Origin: an uncultured cyanobacterium
GTDB lineage: Bacteria > Cyanobacteriota > Cyanobacteriia > Pseudanabaenales > Pseudanabaenaceae
Length of the DNA stretch: 64,000 nt
Direction: 5' to 3'
Assembly (NCBI GenBank): GCA_963703315.1
Contig: OY969811.1
Coordinates: 3,968,001 to 4,032,000, forward strand
The position numbers and the translations under genes were made by a program. Below the pieces are notes generated by a model. That model made no database searches. It saw only the letters and a program-made list of their open reading frames with translations, and was not told where the DNA came from. Shown here piece after piece: positions 13,989 to 25,579 of the stretch (the stretch's first letter is position 1; each line of letters starts with the position of its first letter).

Positions 13989-14276
13989 TTAAAACTGACT
14001 CTCAATATCTCTAGATTGATGGAGAATACGCACAATCTCAATAGAATTTTCTGCTTGCATATAGAAAATAGTGTATGGCTTGACTGGAAAGCTACGCAAT
14101 CCTTTTGAAATATCGTTTCTAACCTTACCCATTGATGGAAACTGGGCAATCATAGGGAATTTATCAAATATCCTTGCCAGTATGAGATCAGCAGCTAATG
14201 AATCATGTTGAGCGAGATATACCCATATATCCTCAAGGTCGCCATCTGCTTGCCGAGAAATTTTAAAGCGATTCAT
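13989..14276 (-). CDS. ParE/RelE family toxin
   Basis: ISRQADGDLEDIW, FPSMG..R, IEIVRILHQSRD. Confidence 0.88.
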   Translation of the reverse strand: MNRFKISRQADGDLEDIWVYLAQHDSLAADLILARIFDKFPMIAQFPSMGKVRNDISKGLRSFPVKPYTIFYMQAENSIEIVRILHQSRDIESQF

Positions 14277-14628
14277 TGCTATTCTGCATCAGCCGACTTT
14301 GACCACGAGTTTTGATGTTTGCTAGCAATGTAGGCATCATATCCGCATGGTATTCATTGTATTCACCATTTTTAAGTTGTGAAATGCCGACATTAATATC
14401 TTGTTGAAGTGCTGCAAGTTTAAGTGCGCGGAGTTCTTCCTCTGCTTGCTGAACGCGATCGCATATTGATTGAAAGGCTGCGGCATCTTGGACTACGACT
14501 TCGGCTTTGCCATTGACGGTCAGAACCATTGGTGATTTTGTGGCTTTGATCTGTTCGATCAAGCCTTTAGCGTTGCGTTTGAAGTCGCTAAGGGATTGGA
14601 TATTTTTAAGGTCGATCATAATTATCAA
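14263..14628 (-). CDS. Phd/YefM antitoxin with ParD-like C-terminus
   Basis: IQSLSDFKRN, PMVLTVNGKAEVVV; overlaps toxin start. Confidence 0.85.
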   Translation of the reverse strand: MIIMIDLKNIQSLSDFKRNAKGLIEQIKATKSPMVLTVNGKAEVVVQDAAAFQSICDRVQQAEEELRALKLAALQQDINVGISQLKNGEYNEYHADMMPTLLANIKTRGQSRLMQNSNESL

Positions 14629-15822: not shown

Positions 15823-16896
15823 TTGTATATAGCGCCAACGAAAGCAAAATTTGCGGACATGATTTCTGCCCCATCTAAATTACAGCAAAAATTCGCTGAA
15901 CCTTTAACTATTGGCAATGTGATCCTCAAAAGTCGGGTGTTGCAATCGCCATTGTCGGGGGTGACAGATTTGGTGTTTCGGCGTTTGGTACGGCGCTATG
16001 CCCCAGATTCAATGCTCTATACAGAGATGATCAGCGCTACGGATCTGCATTATCTCAAGGCTTTACCCAAGTTAATGGAGATCGATCGCCACGAAACACC
16101 GATCAGTATTCAATTATTTGATTGTCGTCCTGATTTTTTGGCAGAGGCAGCGCAAAAGGCGGTACTAGAGGGAGCCGACACCGTAGACATTAATATGGGT
16201 TGCCCTGTTAATAAGATCACCAAAAAAGGTGGCGGCTCATCGTTATTACGTCAGCCTGAACTGGCGGCGCAAATTGTGAGATCAGTGGTTGAGGCTGTTG
16301 ATATTCCTGTGACTGTGAAAACGCGCATCGGTTGGGATGATGCCGAAATTACGATCTTGGACTTTGCGAAACGCATGGAGGATGCGGGAGCCAAGATGAT
16401 CACTGTTCATGCGCGAACGCGATCGCAGGGCTATACAGGTAACGCTAAGTGGGAATGGATTCGTAAAGTTAAAGAGGTGCTGACGATACCTGTAATCGCC
16501 AATGGTGATATTTTTTCAGTGGAAAATGCGATCGCCTGTTTAGAGCAAACGGGAGCCGACGGGGTGATGTGTTCGCGTGGCACATTGGGCTATCCCTTTT
16601 TGGTGGGGCAGGTTGATCATTTTTTAAAAACTGGTGAATACTTGCCAGAGCCGACCGTAATTGAATGTTTAGAAGTTGCCAAAGAACATTTACAAGGGCT
16701 ATGGGATTACAAAGGGATGCGCGGTATCAGTCAATCACGAAAACACATGACTTGGTACGCGAGGGGTTTTGCAGGAGCGGCGGTGTTGCGCGATCGCCTC
16801 TGTCGGATTGAGTCCTTGCAAGATGGAATGGATTGTCTCGATGGGGCGATCGAGGAGTTGCAGGTTCTTGTTCGTCAATCCAAGCTAATCCACTAA
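15823..16896 (+). CDS. dusB: tRNA-dihydrouridine synthase B
   Basis: INMGCP, VTVKTRIGW, VHART, ANGDI; likely start at ATG 15859. Confidence 0.93.
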   Translation: MYIAPTKAKFADMISAPSKLQQKFAEPLTIGNVILKSRVLQSPLSGVTDLVFRRLVRRYAPDSMLYTEMISATDLHYLKALPKLMEIDRHETPISIQLFDCRPDFLAEAAQKAVLEGADTVDINMGCPVNKITKKGGGSSLLRQPELAAQIVRSVVEAVDIPVTVKTRIGWDDAEITILDFAKRMEDAGAKMITVHARTRSQGYTGNAKWEWIRKVKEVLTIPVIANGDIFSVENAIACLEQTGADGVMCSRGTLGYPFLVGQVDHFLKTGEYLPEPTVIECLEVAKEHLQGLWDYKGMRGISQSRKHMTWYARGFAGAAVLRDRLCRIESLQDGMDCLDGAIEELQVLVRQSKLIH

Positions 16897-16972
16897 TGTT
16901 GTCAGTTGCTTTGCCTTCTACGTTAGTGACGTAACGAATAAGGTTTTCAATTTGGGCGATCGGCATGGCGTT

Positions 16973-17805
16973 AAACTTCACAACGCAGGGACAATTTATC
17001 GGTGAAGGCGAAAAGGGTTTAAATTAAAGACCAGTAGGGGCAAAGCATTCCCACCGCAATCTATCAATTTCTAAACCATTTTAATTCGGGAATGCTTTGC
17101 CCTAAACCTCGCAACGCAGGGACAATTTATCGGTAAAAGCGAAGAGGGTTTAAATTAAAGACCAGTAGGGGCATAGCATTCCCACCGCAATCTATCGATT
17201 TCTAAACCATTTTAATTTGGGAATGCTATGCCCAAAACCTCACAACGCAGGGACAAGCGATCGGTGAAGGCGAAGAGGGTTTAAATTAAAGACCAGTAGG
17301 GGCATAGCATTCCCGCCACAATCTATCAATTTCTAAACCATTTTAATTCGGGAATGCTATGCCCAAAATCTCACAACGCAGGGACAATTTATCGGTGAAA
17401 GCGAAGAGGGTTTAAATTAAAGACCAGTAGGGGCAAAGCATTCCCGCCACAATCTATCAATTTCTAAACCATTTTAATTCGGGAATGCTCTGCCCAAAAC
17501 CTCGCAACGCAGGGACAATTTATCGGTAAAAGCGAAAAGGGTTTAAATTAAAGACCAGTAGGGGCAAAGCATTCCCGCCACAATCTATCAATTTCTAAAC
17601 CATTTTAATTCGGGAATGCTCTGCCCAAAATCTCACAACGCAGGGACAATTTATCGGTAAAAGCGAAGAGGGTTTAAATTAAAGACCAGTAGGGGCAAAG
17701 CATTCCCGCCCCAATCTATCAATTTCTAAACCATTTTAATTCGGGAATGCTATGCCCAAAACTTCGCAACGCAGGGACAATTTATCGATAAAAGCGAAGA
17801 GGGTT
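16973..17805. repeat. Tandem array of 131-bp units (6 full + 1 partial), each with a GTAG-led hairpin
   Basis: CAACGCAGGG starts at 16981, 17112, 17243, 17374, 17505, 17636, 17767; arms GGGCAWAGCATTCCC / GGGAATGCTNTGCCC. Confidence 0.97.
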
Positions 17806-17898: not shown

Positions 17899-20376
17899 CT
17901 AATTGCCCCAAATTCTATTCAACACAGTTTGAATCTTTTTCTCAAATCTCTCGATTAGTTCACGGTTAGCATTAACAAGAGATTGCTCGGCTTCGATTTC
18001 AGCAACTATTGCTTTTTGGGTTTCAATCGCTGGAACTGGAATCTTTACTTCAAATAATTGAGAGCGATTAATTTTTGGAATACTTGCTCTCTCATAATAA
18101 CCACGAATCCTCTCATTAAAAGCATTTGAAAGCATATATGTAGATAGATATGTGATGTCAATTTTGGAGCTATCAGGTACTAATGGGTACATATCAGAAC
18201 TACAATAGCCACGCATATTAACAACAGACAATTTATTGAGATAAGGACGGATTTTGCTGTATAGCAAACGTTCACCAGAAAACTCATAAACTGGTCCACT
18301 TACTCTCTGGCTTTCGGCTGTTTCTATTTTTAGTAACTTTCCTGTGTTTGATTCGATACTGTCAGCACCGAAGTACGGAAGTGAAGCATCTATGTTTACA
18401 TTAGGGGTAATTGCTGCACCAAGTGTGCAGATTTTACCAAGCTCTACCATTTCCCAATCAGGAGAGATCGCTATATGAGGTCGATAATTATCAATGACAG
18501 CACGAGCGCCGTTGATGACTTTTTGGTAGCCTTCGATTTCGGTGACTATTTCTTTTTGGATAGCGATCGGTGGCAAAGGGATTTGCACACCTCGAACAAT
18601 TTCACTGTTCAGATTATTGACGACTCCACCTGTTGCAGAACGCTTAAATTGTTGAAACACAAAATCTGAGCCAAGAATGAGATAGAAAAAATCTTGATCT
18701 ATCTGTTCAGACTGATTTCGCAATAGAAGCCATCCGTCATGAATACATCCATCAATAGCCATAATATAAGGTCTTCCAAAACTCATTGAGTTAGAAAGAA
18801 TAAAATCACCCTTTTTTACAGCACGGGATTTTTTAGCACCTTCTGGAATGATGCGTTCTTTAGTTTTAGTAATGTATTTTGAGCCTACTTCTGCATCTCC
18901 AATCTTGATCCAATTTATACCGTCAGGTGAATCAGTAATAAAATCATGAATTGGTCTAGGAGATCCCCCTCTTTCTATAGTGCAAATCTCACCAATTGAA
19001 ATTAGAGGATAGCTTAAACTAGCGTTAGCTGCTACATCTCGATATCTCTCCCCACTCAAATTATATTCACCATTAGCCGCAATCCTAGACTTCGGCACAA
19101 CCAAAACCCGATCATCATTCGCAATTCCTAATTCGTAATTCGTAATTGACAATTCGTAATTCGTAATTTGCTCCAACACAAAAGGCAAATCATCCCCCTC
19201 AACCGCCCGCCTTTGAGCGCCCAAACCGAATCCATCATTCTCGACCTTAAAAAATGCAATCTTATCCGTCTTCTTCGCCAAAGACTTATCCAAGATTAAA
19301 ATCGAAGTCTTCACCCCAGAATACGGATTAAAAACCCCAGCAGGAAGCGAAATCACCGCCACCAGCGAATTCTCAACCAACATCTTCCGCAAATCCTTAT
19401 AAGCAGTCTGACTCTGGAAAATAATCCCCTCAGGCACAATAATCCCCGCCCTACCCCTAGGCGAAAGATGTTCCGCCATATAGTCCACAAATAGAACCTC
19501 ACTCCGCTTCGCCTGAATCGAAAACCGCTTATGGGGCTTAATCCCACCCTTCGGCGACATAAACGGCGGATTTGCAAGGATCACATCCGCAAACTCATTC
19601 CACTTATCCTCAGAAGTCAACGTATCGTACTCAGCAATTTGCGGACTCTTAAAACCATGCAAATAGAGATTTACCAACGACAACCGCACCATATCAGGCG
19701 AAATATCATAACCTCTAAAATTAGTCGCCATCAGCCCCTTCTCATCAGGCGTAAGCGTACTATTCCCCTGAGCATCCAGATTAGACCGCAAAATATGCTT
19801 ATACGCCGAAATCAAAAAACCCGCCGTACCACAAGCAGGATCGAGAATCACCTCACCCTTTTGCGGACGCAAAACCTCCACCATAAAATCAATAATATGG
19901 CGCGGCGTGCGGAACTGCCCCGCATCCCCCTGCGAACCCAACACCGACAGCAAATACTCAAACGCATCCCCCAACCGTTCCGAATGATCGTAGGTAAACC
20001 CATCAATCACCTTCAAGAAACTCTTCAGCGTCTCAGGATCGCGATAGGGAAGATACGCATTCTTAAAAATATCTCGAAACAACGCAGGAATCCCCGCATT
20101 CTGCGGCATCGTGCTAATCCCCTCACTGTAAAGGCTCAGCAACTCATGACCGCCCACCGTCGGACTCATCAACCGTCCCCAACCAAACTTCGCAAACTCA
20201 CCCGCAAAAAAACTGCGATCGCCCCCCAACTCCTCCACCTCCGCATCCATATCATCCATAAACTTATAGATGAGAGCGATCGTAATCTGTTCCACTTGCG
20301 ACTTCGGATCAGGAACCTTCCCCACCAAAATGTCACGAGCAGTATCAATACGGCGTTTAGTTTCAGAATCAAGCAT
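17899..20376 (-). CDS. Type I R-M fused methyltransferase-specificity subunit (HsdM-HsdS)
   Basis: GQFRTPRH, DPACGTAGF, ANPPF (m6A MTase); two TRDs each followed by a P...Q..IV helix. Confidence 0.92.
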   Translation of the reverse strand: MLDSETKRRIDTARDILVGKVPDPKSQVEQITIALIYKFMDDMDAEVEELGGDRSFFAGEFAKFGWGRLMSPTVGGHELLSLYSEGISTMPQNAGIPALFRDIFKNAYLPYRDPETLKSFLKVIDGFTYDHSERLGDAFEYLLSVLGSQGDAGQFRTPRHIIDFMVEVLRPQKGEVILDPACGTAGFLISAYKHILRSNLDAQGNSTLTPDEKGLMATNFRGYDISPDMVRLSLVNLYLHGFKSPQIAEYDTLTSEDKWNEFADVILANPPFMSPKGGIKPHKRFSIQAKRSEVLFVDYMAEHLSPRGRAGIIVPEGIIFQSQTAYKDLRKMLVENSLVAVISLPAGVFNPYSGVKTSILILDKSLAKKTDKIAFFKVENDGFGLGAQRRAVEGDDLPFVLEQITNYELSITNYELGIANDDRVLVVPKSRIAANGEYNLSGERYRDVAANASLSYPLISIGEICTIERGGSPRPIHDFITDSPDGINWIKIGDAEVGSKYITKTKERIIPEGAKKSRAVKKGDFILSNSMSFGRPYIMAIDGCIHDGWLLLRNQSEQIDQDFFYLILGSDFVFQQFKRSATGGVVNNLNSEIVRGVQIPLPPIAIQKEIVTEIEGYQKVINGARAVIDNYRPHIAISPDWEMVELGKICTLGAAITPNVNIDASLPYFGADSIESNTGKLLKIETAESQRVSGPVYEFSGERLLYSKIRPYLNKLSVVNMRGYCSSDMYPLVPDSSKIDITYLSTYMLSNAFNERIRGYYERASIPKINRSQLFEVKIPVPAIETQKAIVAEIEAEQSLVNANRELIERFEKKIQTVLNRIWGN
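19130..19169. repeat. AATTCGT heptamer repeats inside hsdM-S coding sequence
   Basis: AATTCGTAATTCGTAATTGACAATTCGTAATTCGTAATT, translated as ITNYELSITNYEL. Confidence 0.85.
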
Positions 20377-20380
20377 TTTT

Positions 20381-20507
20381 AATTAATTACGAATTACGAA
20401 TTATCAATTACGAATTGCAAAATCGTAAATTGGTAGAATATTATAACTCCTAAGCCTTACCCCCAACCTCCACCTCGTAATTCGTAATTCCTAATTCGTA
20501 ATTAAAT
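20381..20507. repeat. Inverted heptamer-repeat junction element 1
   Basis: (AATTACG)n ... (AATTCGT)n; arms nearly identical to 22401-22511. Confidence 0.85.
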
Positions 20508-20509
20508 AG

Positions 20510-20746
20510 ATGAAAACCATACCAGTAGACAACCTCACCACCAACTTCATAAACCTCCTAGAAGAAATCGCCATCACAGGCGACCCCATCGAACTTGACT
20601 GGCAAGGCAAACGTTTTCAAATTCTGCCAGTACAGAAAAAAAGCCGACTCGACAATCTTGTACCCCGCCCCGAAGTATACATTGGCGATCCTGAAGATCT
20701 GGTAAACATCTCTTGGGAGCATGAAATAAACCTTGATTTACCTTGA
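20510..20746 (+). CDS. Phd/YefM-like antitoxin
   Basis: 78 aa, NLLEEIAITGDPIEL, GDPEDLV. Confidence 0.75.
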   Translation: MKTIPVDNLTTNFINLLEEIAITGDPIELDWQGKRFQILPVQKKSRLDNLVPRPEVYIGDPEDLVNISWEHEINLDLP

Positions 20747-20768
20747 CACGAAAATCATAAATTCGTAA
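20733..20768 (+). pseudogene. Truncated VapC/PIN toxin remnant
   Basis: TTG ATT TAC CTT GAC ACG = MIYLDT overlapping the antitoxin end, then stops within heptamer repeats. Confidence 0.6.
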
Positions 20769-20778
20769 TTCGTAATTT

Positions 20779-21186
20779 CTAATTCTTAACTACAAGGCGC
20801 TCAAAATCAGTTACCGAAATAATGATAGTTTCTAACATTCTTTGCGCTTCTGAGAAATCTTTGTCACCTGTAATAAAAAAATTGGCTGAACCTGCGATCG
20901 CGCAAGCTAAGAATTTTGCATCTTTTTGATCGCGAGGAAAATCAATTTCTATCTCTACATCAATGCAATTTGTCATTAAATCAAACACCATCAACCACTT
21001 TTCGATAATTTCTTGAGGCAGCTTAAATTTCGGACGACCGATCACAGCTTTATATTCTGTCAAAATATCTGACGAGACTATCCACTCAAATTCTTCATGC
21101 TCAGCAACAAACAAAATAACCTGTTCAGGAGCGCGATCTTTTAGAATTGCTGACACCAAAACATTCGTATCAATAACAACTCTCAT
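20779..21186 (-). CDS. PIN-domain toxin
   Basis: VVIDTNVLVSA, RDQKDAKFLACA, ITGDKDF. Confidence 0.9.
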   Translation of the reverse strand: MRVVIDTNVLVSAILKDRAPEQVILFVAEHEEFEWIVSSDILTEYKAVIGRPKFKLPQEIIEKWLMVFDLMTNCIDVEIEIDFPRDQKDAKFLACAIAGSANFFITGDKDFSEAQRMLETIIISVTDFERLVVKN

Positions 21187-21425
21187 AAACCTTGACGATA
21201 AGATTCAATCTCAGCCATAATTTCAGCTTCAGAAATAGCTTGTACTTGAGGTAAGCCCTGAGTCTCTTTAAAAAGAGCGCGTAGATCAAAAGGTAAAATC
21301 TTCTTCCTGCGATTAGCTTTAAGCACAATTACCCTCACTTCACAGCCCTCCAATTCTGTTCTCAGAGAATCAGGAACTTGAATTTTTCCATTAGACACAG
21401 TAGTTTTAAATTCTTCAGCAAGCAT
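21183..21425 (-). CDS. Putative antitoxin of the PIN toxin
   Basis: 80 aa, 4-bp ATGA overlap with the PIN gene. Confidence 0.7.
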   Translation of the reverse strand: MLAEEFKTTVSNGKIQVPDSLRTELEGCEVRVIVLKANRRKKILPFDLRALFKETQGLPQVQAISEAEIMAEIESYRQGL

Positions 21426-21427
21426 AA

Positions 21428-21540
21428 TAATTACGAATTACGAATTAAAAACACATTATATCGCCTAGATCTGTCATCCTTAATCCCAATTCCCAATTCG
21501 TAATTCGTAATTCGTAATTCCTAGTTGAATAATTCGTAAT
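21428..21540. repeat. Inverted heptamer-repeat junction element 2
   Basis: AATTACGAATTACGAATT ... AATTCGTAATTCGTAATTCGTAATT. Confidence 0.85.
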
Positions 21541-22058
21541 TAACTAATTAAACCCTCAACCAACTTCATCGGCAAATAAAGCCTCATCGGATCTTGTTTA
21601 AATCTTTGAAATCCATACTTTAAATAAAAACTCGCAGCATCCTCATCCAAAGCCTCGGCAATGACAGCCAAAGATGCAATCTGACTTGATACTTCAAAAG
21701 ACTTCATCAGCGCATCAATTAACAATAGTTCGCCAAACCGTTTCCCTCTTTGTTGCCGATCAATTCCCAAACGACCGAGCAAAGTCGCTGGTAATAAAGG
21801 ATATCGTGGCAAAGACTTAGCAAAAGTACCATCAAGAGCCGTCACCTCCACAACAAAAGCCGAAAGAGAGTAATAGCCCAAGATATCTGTTTCAAGTTCA
21901 TCTTCTTGCGCGTCAACCAAAACAAACACAGTCGATATCTTCCTTTTGAGATCCTGTGTAGCCTGCTTGCGAAGGTAATTATCTAGACTATCTTTACCAC
22001 AACAAAAACTAGAGCGCCGATGCTTGCGACTATCCAAAGGCTCGATTTTGAGAACCAT
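21540..22058 (-). CDS. GNAT acetyltransferase toxin (TacT/AtaT-like)
   Basis: FCCGKDSLDNYL, PATLLGRLGID...GK.FG, FYLKYGF. Confidence 0.9.
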   Translation of the reverse strand: MVLKIEPLDSRKHRRSSFCCGKDSLDNYLRKQATQDLKRKISTVFVLVDAQEDELETDILGYYSLSAFVVEVTALDGTFAKSLPRYPLLPATLLGRLGIDRQQRGKRFGELLLIDALMKSFEVSSQIASLAVIAEALDEDAASFYLKYGFQRFKQDPMRLYLPMKLVEGLIS

Positions 22059-22381
22059 TAAGCCCTCATGGTTTGCTTATATCTGACCGCCGCAGCATTT
22101 AGAGCCTCATTAGGCAAAGGTGGATTCAGCAAAGCCTCCACAAAAAGTTCACTATCTTCTCGATTAAGCTTGAGAGTTTGATGCTTCGCAATCACCGTAT
22201 AGGCAGCCTCCTGTAAACTAGCAATCACAAAATCAGTGAGAGTACGCCCCTCCAAATCAGCCGCCTTTTGCCACATAGCCTTAATCTCAGGGCTAACACG
22301 AGCTTCCAGCCTCGCCATTGTCTTCGCAGGTGTTGCAGATGTCATAGCATAATATTGAAATCTACATAAATTGTACGGCAA
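22058..22381 (-). CDS. DUF1778 RHH antitoxin (TacA-like)
   Basis: RLEARVSPE.K...QKAA.LEGRTLTDFV, ALLNPPLPN; likely start MTS (22345). Confidence 0.9.
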   Translation of the reverse strand: MPYNLCRFQYYAMTSATPAKTMARLEARVSPEIKAMWQKAADLEGRTLTDFVIASLQEAAYTVIAKHQTLKLNREDSELFVEALLNPPLPNEALNAAAVRYKQTMRA

Positions 22382-22400
22382 TCAGACGTACATTAATTAT

Positions 22401-22511
22401 TTAATTACGAATTATCAATTACGAATTAAGATTTTGATTGCACAGCAAATGAAACAATACCCAAAAAACACCACCTCGTAATTCGTAATTCCCAATTCGT
22501 AATTGAATAAT
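22401..22511. repeat. Inverted heptamer-repeat junction element 3
   Basis: AATTACGAATTATCAATTACGAATT ... CCACCTCGTAATTCGTAATTCCCAATTCGTAATT. Confidence 0.85.
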
Positions 22512-25061: not shown

Positions 25062-25254
25062 GGCAAACCCCAGTATTAAACTTGAACACAGATTAATTTT
25101 TCTGCTTTATTTCATTGTTTAATTATAAAACAACTTGCGATCACCGTCCCTCGGCATCTTTTGCGTTTTGGTTTTGTCCTAACGTAACTGACTACAGCTA
25201 TACCATACAGATTTTCTAGCGATCGCCTAGTAGGAGTTAACGAATGGTCGTATT

Positions 25255-25359
25255 TACAGCCATTTCCGATCAAACGAACCACAAGAATAAATTTGAAAGC
25301 GTTGCGAAGCAACGCTTTCAAATTTATTCTTGGTTCGGGTTTGAGCGCAAAGCGCTGTA
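25255..25359. repeat. Palindromic MITE-like element family E
   Basis: TACAGC...GCTGTA ends, central GCGAAGC hairpin; inverted diverged copy at 35231-35333. Confidence 0.75.
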
Positions 25360-25579
25360 ACTTGGCGATCGCCCAACTTAAAGACAAGATCGGGAATATC
25401 GTTTTAAATTAGTATGACGATTAAATTTGGGGTGATCAGTTAGGCGATCGCCTACAATGGCACTATTAGCAAGACATCTCTCCCCAACAAATTTTTAATT
25501 TTGCTAATCTAGGCGGGTAGCAAAACTTTACCGTTCTAGTAAAATACTGCCAACCCCATAAACTTAATTCAGAAGCATC

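Follow-up and report, generated by a model that had tools for sequence, protein, structure and literature searches.

What joins, and what exchanges, the toxin-antitoxin (TA) genes that lie between the restriction and modification genes of a type I restriction-modification (R-M) operon in an uncultured cyanobacterium of the Pseudanabaenaceae? The question is raised by a stretch of 64,000 nucleotides (the window; contig OY969811.1, positions 3,968,001 to 4,032,000) of a complete 4.57-Mb genome, here called G000, in which GCGATCGC occurs 8231 times, an abundance that we take to be that of highly iterated palindrome 1 (HIP1) and a cyanobacterial sign. On the minus strand the order of genes is hsdR, TacA, TacT, a gene of 80 amino acids, a PIN_3 toxin, a Phd-like gene in the opposite orientation and a fused hsdM-S, and the junctions between these modules carry short arrays of the heptamers AATTACG and CGTAATT, paired as inverted arms around a spacer. 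An earlier reading of the sequence alone (the sequence-only reading) had proposed that such junctions act as attC-like hairpin sites, or as homology patches, that load defence cassettes into the operon. We consider it probable, at about 0.6, that the first arms of the hairpins act as short direct-repeat patches at which host recombination stacks, swaps and deletes TA modules.

Allelic content and the point of exchange

Eight other genomes of the genus carry this R-M system, which with G000 gives nine alleles. In the eight that have both genes on one contig, the hsdR-hsdM gap measures 820-2139 bp, and its content differs: TacAT, a PIN pair and an orphan vapB in G000; TacAT and YefM/YoeB in G030 and G016; YefM/YoeB in G003; inverted VapBC in G010, G022 and G039; YefM/YoeB and VapBC in G027; and YefM/YoeB with an orphan vapB in G020, which lies on two contigs whose join we infer. 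The partner of vapB in the relatives is, by Pfam, a PIN toxin. All module boundaries in the nine alleles carry at least one arm and content changes exactly at the arms. Read along hsdR transcription, a second arm of (AATTCGT)n precedes each module and a first arm of (AATTACG)n follows it. None of the nine alleles is empty. The R-M island is found in four or more chromosomal neighbourhoods, and its cargo differs between genomes that share one (G016 vs G022; G010 vs G027 vs G020; G030 vs G003). A remnant of the locus in G040 has lost hsdR and hsdM and retains TacAT and a truncated VapBC, and on a contig labelled Nodularia the PIN pair lies in the hsdR-hsdM gap and has two arms, one of AATTACG and one degenerate. 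A 401-genome sample of the phylum yielded one further allele of the same genus and eight distant genomes (nine loci) without arms.

At the loci L035 (G027, downstream of hsdM-S), L033, L034 and L037 the arm-bounded array extends past hsdS, with a PIN-like pair and an 85-amino-acid RelB-like gene. The window itself holds an internally deleted remnant of this RelB-like gene at 16727-16981.

The spacers follow the module downstream of them. Across 21 complete junctions, compared as non-independent pairs, mean full-spacer identity was 0.83 where the downstream module was the same and the upstream module different, vs 0.70 for the converse, and label permutation (n=5000) gave 0/5000 for downstream and 87/5000 for upstream tracking. 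The junctions ahead of hsdM in G030 (behind YoeB) and G039 (behind vapB) are 100% identical over the spacer, the second arm and 30 bases beyond it, and the 5' parts of the two hsdM genes are only 95.9% identical. Spacers ahead of different modules are also related to one another: among nine non-hsdM spacers (27 pairs, after two with long insertions and one with an unrelated palindrome had been dropped), the alignment score was 27.6 vs 16.1 for shuffled sequence (0/200). Given this downstream tracking, and the one spacer that stands unchanged behind YoeB in G030 and behind vapB in G039, the travelling unit consists of spacer, second arm, genes and first arm. On this comparison the crossover point appears to lie in the first arm, and G027 reads as if a G003-type allele had been joined there to a G010-type allele. 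Among the assembled contigs of X1, possibly the source of the genome, which tile the locus, no module-to-module joint is listed, a negative confined to contigs. Short-sided contig joints in X2, X3, X4 and X7, considered as candidate module joints, most likely stem from copies of the repeat elsewhere and were set aside.

Deletions end at the same places. What remains at 20760 is one arm of a junction from which the end of the spacer, the second arm and almost the whole of vapC are gone, such that the VapC partner of the Phd-like orphan in G000 is reduced to its first codons; intact PIN/VapC pairs are present in G010, G022, G039 and G027. The same deletion joint occurs in G020, and falls at a short match between a G027-type spacer and the start of vapC. 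A different vapC deletion in G040 starts from an arm, and the YoeB of G027 lacks its last residues and ends at an arm; the deletion joints of G000/G020, G040 and G027 thus all end at arms. Loss of the toxin first, together with the lack of empty alleles, would fit TA addiction, an established feature of TA biology.

We propose that the arms may have reached the locus with a four-helix-bundle (4HB, PF05635) cassette, and then spread to gene junctions. Multi-module alleles would arise when single-module alleles cross over out of register at the arms, with a second crossover in hsdR or in hsdM, which is approximately 96% identical, and modules would be lost by the same exchange in reverse. Slippage stimulated by the hairpins could produce half-junctions and toxin-first decay, and TA addiction would explain why empty alleles were not met with. 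No dedicated recombinase would be required.

Hairpins at the locus and repeats elsewhere

When period-7 arrays were called with TRF and inverted arms paired by repeat search, the pairs that the sequence-only reading had placed at 20381, 21428 and 22401, and its single arm at 20759-20780, were borne out. It had described junctions 1 and 3 as near-identical in their arms and different in their spacers; 38 of 41 bases agree between 20468-20508 and 22469-22509, which makes a 41-base direct repeat with three mismatches available between the two. The TATAAT that it noticed in junctions 1 and 2 lies at 20440-20445 and 21455-21460 (as ATTATA on the plus strand); that in the spacer of junction 1 faces hsdM-S and is kept in 9/9 alleles. 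A scan for sigma-70 promoters returned 5 sites vs 6.3 expected, and is uninformative. Folding of single-stranded DNA, a check that had been suggested, gave hairpins on both strands of junctions 1 to 3, with z from -3.8 to -8.0 and 0/200 shuffles as stable in each of the six folds. An Rfam scan returned nothing significant (one chance match, E=0.43). Absent from the earlier list is an in-frame arm within hsdM-S, present in 5/9 alleles and replaced in the other 4/9 by a repeat-free segment. The C-terminal segment of HsdM thus has two allelic forms; the specificity domains also vary, the first of them being common to G020 and G003.

Across the genome, 24 arms in 16 loci were kept from 109 raw core clusters, and eight of the 24 fall within some 3.4 kb at this locus, of 4.57 Mb (post hoc binomial 7e-20, or 9e-17 after multiplication by the number of intervals of that size). 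The genome has 28 heptamer runs, vs none in a 2-Mb Markov simulation, and the pattern is present in 37 of 48 genomes of the genus, for which a reversed-pattern control returned 0. The heptamers are thus concentrated here, as had been claimed, and content varies at their boundaries among the nine alleles; uniform spread and invariant content were what the sequence-only reading had named as speaking against it. The remaining 16 arms stand at 11 other loci, in or between ordinary chromosomal genes, which, from their translations, we take to include nitrate transport, rpsK/rpoA, zwf/opcA, gcvP, lptA/B, crcB, rplJ and psaC. Just one of 55 PIN/Phd/ParE matches in the genome lies less than 1 kb from an arm, namely the PIN gene of this locus, and two more are near only a single 9-mer, which rules out the arms as a general marker of TA genes. 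The repeat is a dispersed family of the short tandemly repeated repetitive (STRR) type, dense at this locus, and no general TA marker. AATTACG is reportedly an STRR family of Nostoc punctiforme; small dispersed repeats were reportedly treated by Elhai in 2008.

Other in-frame arms occur on C1 of G000 near 368009, 558500 and 2586295, in a gcvP-like, a decarboxylase-like and a hypothetical gene (NYELRIT peptides), and those at the gcvP-like and decarboxylase-like genes are common to G004 or G012. At L214 and L215 (G010 and G012) the arrangement is reversed, a second arm being followed within a few bases by a first arm, between rpoB-like and rpoC1-like genes.

Such dispersal raises the alternative that these hairpins are bystanders which merely gather at gene junctions, and that TA content varies by loss, or by replacement of the whole interval through crossovers in hsdR and hsdM. 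Five of the 11 other loci in G000 carry the same inverted pairs, at ordinary operon or in-gene sites, and six carry single arms, as this alternative would have it; TA homologues at 65-82% identity elsewhere are armless (11/11 TacAT and 6/6 PIN pairs). Distant relatives of the operon favour it also. Among 160 distant hsdR loci, 135 have hsdM in view, with 99 gaps of at most 150 bp and 36 of more than 300 bp that contain cargo, including PDDEXK_3, Fic, KilA-N, TIR, AbiEii and PF05635-like genes (39 of 43 gap open reading frames (ORFs) scanned). No heptamer run was found in 34 of these 36 cargo gaps, and of the two with a run one is weak; the hsdR-hsdM gap is a hotspot for cargo whether arms are present or not.

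The distant gaps also count against recombination at the arms, as do several features of the alleles themselves. Reversed module order was found in none of seven module adjacencies, and one long ancestral array thinned by differential loss alone would give the allele table equally well. The identity of TacAT among alleles, at 95-96%, is close to that of hsdM, at 95-97%, which is compatible with vertical descent with loss. Loss from a longer ancestor would use the same crossovers as stacking, and the two look alike in these alleles; conservation of a promoter, given the TATAAT in the hsdM spacer, could account for some of the downstream tracking; and the non-independence of the spacer pairs belongs here too. 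Trees of hsdR and hsdM disagree in branching order, neither sorts the alleles by their cargo, and they cannot separate gain from loss. What bystander repeats do not account for are the identical G030/G039 spacer and the homologous spacers ahead of different modules, both of which need crossovers inside junctions, nor do they predict that deletion endpoints should coincide with arms, or that a third of the arms of a genome should crowd into one locus. We therefore regard mere gathering at gene junctions as possible but rather doubtful, and prefer recombination at the first arms.

The features of the locus are collected in Table 1. All components of a type I R-M system were found (HsdR, an N6-methylase and specificity domains, with M and S fused), at NCBIfam scores below the family cut-offs. 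By their matches, TacA and TacT form a type II TA pair of known families. The sequence-only reading had spoken of a Phd/PIN module; both genes are present, but do not make one pair, as PIN pairs with the 80-amino-acid gene and the Phd-like gene is an orphan.

Table 1. Positions within the window of genes and heptamer arms at the R-M locus
Feature	Position	Strand	Basis or detail
Fused type I HsdM-HsdS, 825 aa, two specificity regions	17899..20376	-	Pfam N6_Mtase 5e-49; Methylase_S in two stretches
Arm read in frame within hsdM-S, close to the M/S boundary; translation ITNYELSITNYELGI	19117..19168		TRF, translation
Junction 1 hairpin	20381..20508		Arms 20385-20416 and 20475-20503; TRF, folding
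Orphan Phd/YefM-like antitoxin, 78 aa	20510..20746	+	Atlas 0.93 to Phd/YefM clusters; Pfam only E=0.036
Single arm (half-hairpin)	20760..20789		TRF; comparison with full junction in G027
PIN_3-family putative toxin, 135 aa	20779..21186	-	Pfam PIN_3 1e-22; TIGR00305 above cut-off
Putative antitoxin, 80 aa, overlaps PIN start	21183..21425	-	Role inferred from position; no Pfam or NCBIfam match; Atlas best 0.88, to hypothetical cyanobacterial clusters
Junction 2 hairpin	21428..21541		Arms 21429-21447 and 21484-21541; TRF, folding
TacT/KacT-like GNAT toxin, 172 aa	21540..22058	-	PDB matches 7f37, 7ak7, 5zgn (KacT), E 2e-20 to 1e-15
TacA-like antitoxin, 95 aa from ATG	22058..22345	-	Pfam TacA1 1.9e-26
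Junction 3 hairpin, right after hsdR stop	22401..22511		Arms 22403-22428 and 22476-22504; TRF, folding
HsdR, 849 aa	22512..25061	-	Pfam ResIII, HSDR_N_2; best NCBIfam EcoAI/FtnUII family, below cut-off

Three neighbouring features were also noted. A Phd/ParE TA pair without arms lies at 13989-14628, 3 kb off the R-M locus, and a 52-bp inverted repeat unrelated to the heptamers stands upstream of hsdR at 25254-25360. Just downstream of hsdM-S, at 16973-17805, a 131-bp unit is repeated in tandem (6.4 copies, which are 92-95% alike), full-length copies of which occur in G000 only there, with partial matches in 23 other genome clusters; single units or fragments follow hsdS in G016, G020, G027 and G003, and related sequence is found within one junction spacer of G016.

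Four-helix-bundle cassettes, RNA stems and integrons

In relatives, pairs of arms some 420 bp apart enclose a 4HB gene, which offers a possible source of the arms and a link that the sequence-only reading had not made. Thirty PF05635 loci were returned, of which 21 matched the 4HB query and nine did so at 87-100% identity; all nine members of that subfamily are flanked on both sides by AATTACG/CGTAATT arms, and most of the other 12 query-matching loci show other heptamer types. In G003 the hsdS of this very system contains an arm-4HB-arm cassette, behind its first specificity domain (L209:1384-1930), where the contigs appear to join across what reads as an insertion sequence, because the flanks continue the G020 protein exactly. 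G027 has the same hsdS cassette (L035) with the 4HB gene mostly deleted, and a metagenome contig of X2 spans the cassette with the full 4HB gene; a gene-less hairpin in the hsdS of X2, entertained as a candidate, was therefore wrong. At both L209 and L035, hsdM-S has a single specificity domain and then ends, its terminal helix containing an arm read in frame; next come the 4HB gene in G003, or what deletion has left of it in G027, and a residual 3' end of hsdS, such that a half-size HsdS is predicted.

Two results weigh against a 4HB origin of the arms at the TA junctions. No PF05635 gene was matched in G000, and the hairpins in the window are gene-less; and comparison of the TA-junction spacers with 4HB DNA gave a best blastn-short match of 14 nt, outside the gene, and nhmmer E values of at least 0.08, so that the spacers were rejected as 4HB deletion products. 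Because G000 lacks PF05635 and the spacers are unlike 4HB DNA, the proposed seeding by a 4HB cassette is drawn from the shared repeat type and from the hsdS cassette in relatives.

A second 4HB subfamily has TGGTAAT/ATTACCA arms (L238, L243-L247, L256 and L258), and its neighbours on either side resemble cas6 and cas4; a third arm type stands just ahead of an HsdS-like gene at L248.

A more specialised explanation would make the arms cis ends for 4HB (S23p/Avd-like)-associated machinery, possibly acting through an RNA stem, with the TA modules as non-autonomous cargo. Hairpins on both sides, as at the TA modules, frame the 4HB genes of L240, L242 and L255; other 4HB subfamilies have heptamer types of their own; and the 4HB protein weakly matches the Avd protein of diversity-generating retroelements (E=3e-4, below cut-off). 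VapBC copies of 89-93% identity at other loci could be added, in that they keep a 1-2-unit arm remnant before vapB, which may allow entry by microhomology. These VapBC copies are however without full arms, and all TacAT (4/4) and YefM/YoeB (5/5) copies of at least 90% identity are confined to this locus or its remnant. We know of no catalytic activity of PF05635 that would provide mobility, G000 has no 4HB gene, and the accessible portion of PMC4990558 treats mobility as a hypothesis only. Dedicated machinery of this kind thus seems unlikely, and it is likewise improbable that a 4HB-run cassette system, through gene-less hairpins that capture neighbouring defence genes, constitutes an integrase-free 'integron analogue' in the R-M operon.

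The hairpins might instead be maintained for their RNA, as RNase III-type processing stems or as insulators that uncouple hsdR, the TA genes and hsdM, with recombination a side effect. On the sense strand the RNA folds into hairpins of -27 to -41 kcal/mol (z from -3.3 to -6.0), which suits such a role, as does the Coxiella intervening sequence (IVS), which has heptamer repeats and an S23p ORF and is cut by RNase III according to the accessible portion of PMC4990558. The folding advantage of the sense strand, seen in 19/19 junctions, is nevertheless matched by shuffled spacers (-8.6 vs -8.8 kcal/mol) and therefore reflects G-skew, and selection on the RNA strand was rejected on that ground; moreover, half-junctions are tolerated. 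We judge an RNA-level role highly improbable.

Comparison with integrons goes against one part of the sequence-only proposal. Imperfect hairpins of roughly attC size between small modules, and TA-rich content, do recall an integron array in which the hairpins would be attC sites for an IntI-type integrase. The best match in the genome to IntI scores 32 bits (TIGR02249; cut-off 265), and no tyrosine recombinase was found near the locus, which lies at 3.99 Mb, the PF00589 matches being at about 1.755 Mb and 4.37 Mb. Clusters of attC sites lacking an integron-integrase (CALINs) may have no IntI, so that its absence alone does not exclude the model. The attC core motifs, RYYYAAC and GTTRRRY, were however found in 0/21 junctions on either strand, no order was reversed in the seven module adjacencies, the same hairpins stand within ordinary genes and operons, and only one of the 55 TA-family matches in the genome is marked by an arm, which together tell strongly against the attC reading and leave an integron-like array with scarcely any likelihood. 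The idea of homology patches fared better, as content varies at the arms and spacers track the downstream module; as for the loading of cassettes, the evidence stops at points of recombination and deletion.

Known systems and significance

Several known systems share features with this locus. Of the cyanobacterial heptamers described, TAACTGA repeats figure in the accessible portion of PMC4679880, and that of PMC4692102 reports GGGAATC repeats, often in inverted pairs, at more conserved rather than more variable sites. Like other STRR repeats, ours form short period-7 arrays at gene boundaries, with variable copy number, inverted pairs and occasional in-frame copies; unlike them, they form the homologous joints of a variable gene array. 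The ORF-bearing IVS/4HB cassettes of 23S rRNA genes (S23p, PF05635, TIGR02436), as presented in the accessible portion of PMC4990558, likewise have inverted heptamer arms, and the same AATTACG arms bracket 4HB genes in the genus, whereas the window hairpins are gene-less, have spacers unlike 4HB DNA, and flank TA modules in an mRNA operon rather than rRNA. As far as the accessible portions of PMC8618304 and PMC4889954 describe integron arrays and CALINs, these resemble the locus in their tandem, TA-rich small modules tied by hairpins and in a switch point at one hairpin end, and differ in their IntI, attC cores and shuffled order, and in the fixed position of our array in an R-M operon. Accessory genes of type I R-M operons (prrC in ecoprrI; accessible portion of PMC12707154) and R-M defence islands likewise place variable defence or TA genes among the hsd genes; the locus departs from them in that its joints are defined by repeats and as many as three modules are stacked. 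A literature search, with subscription papers and supplements outside its reach, returned no description of heptamer arms that join TA modules in an R-M operon; what is new is the use of gene-less heptamer arms as module joints.

Catalogues of heptamer repeats in cyanobacteria go back decades, with no clear consequence attached to them, and the nine alleles amount to a natural experiment in which one type of repeat stands at every joint. If host recombination suffices, then the result is a neat but modest one in genome evolution; if it is true that the 4HB protein drives turnover, then a new mobile system, and a function for STRR heptamers, would follow. Either way, the locus yields a testable claim, that heptamers make TA cargo turn over faster within R-M islands, and one which ties these repeats to the 4HB cassette.

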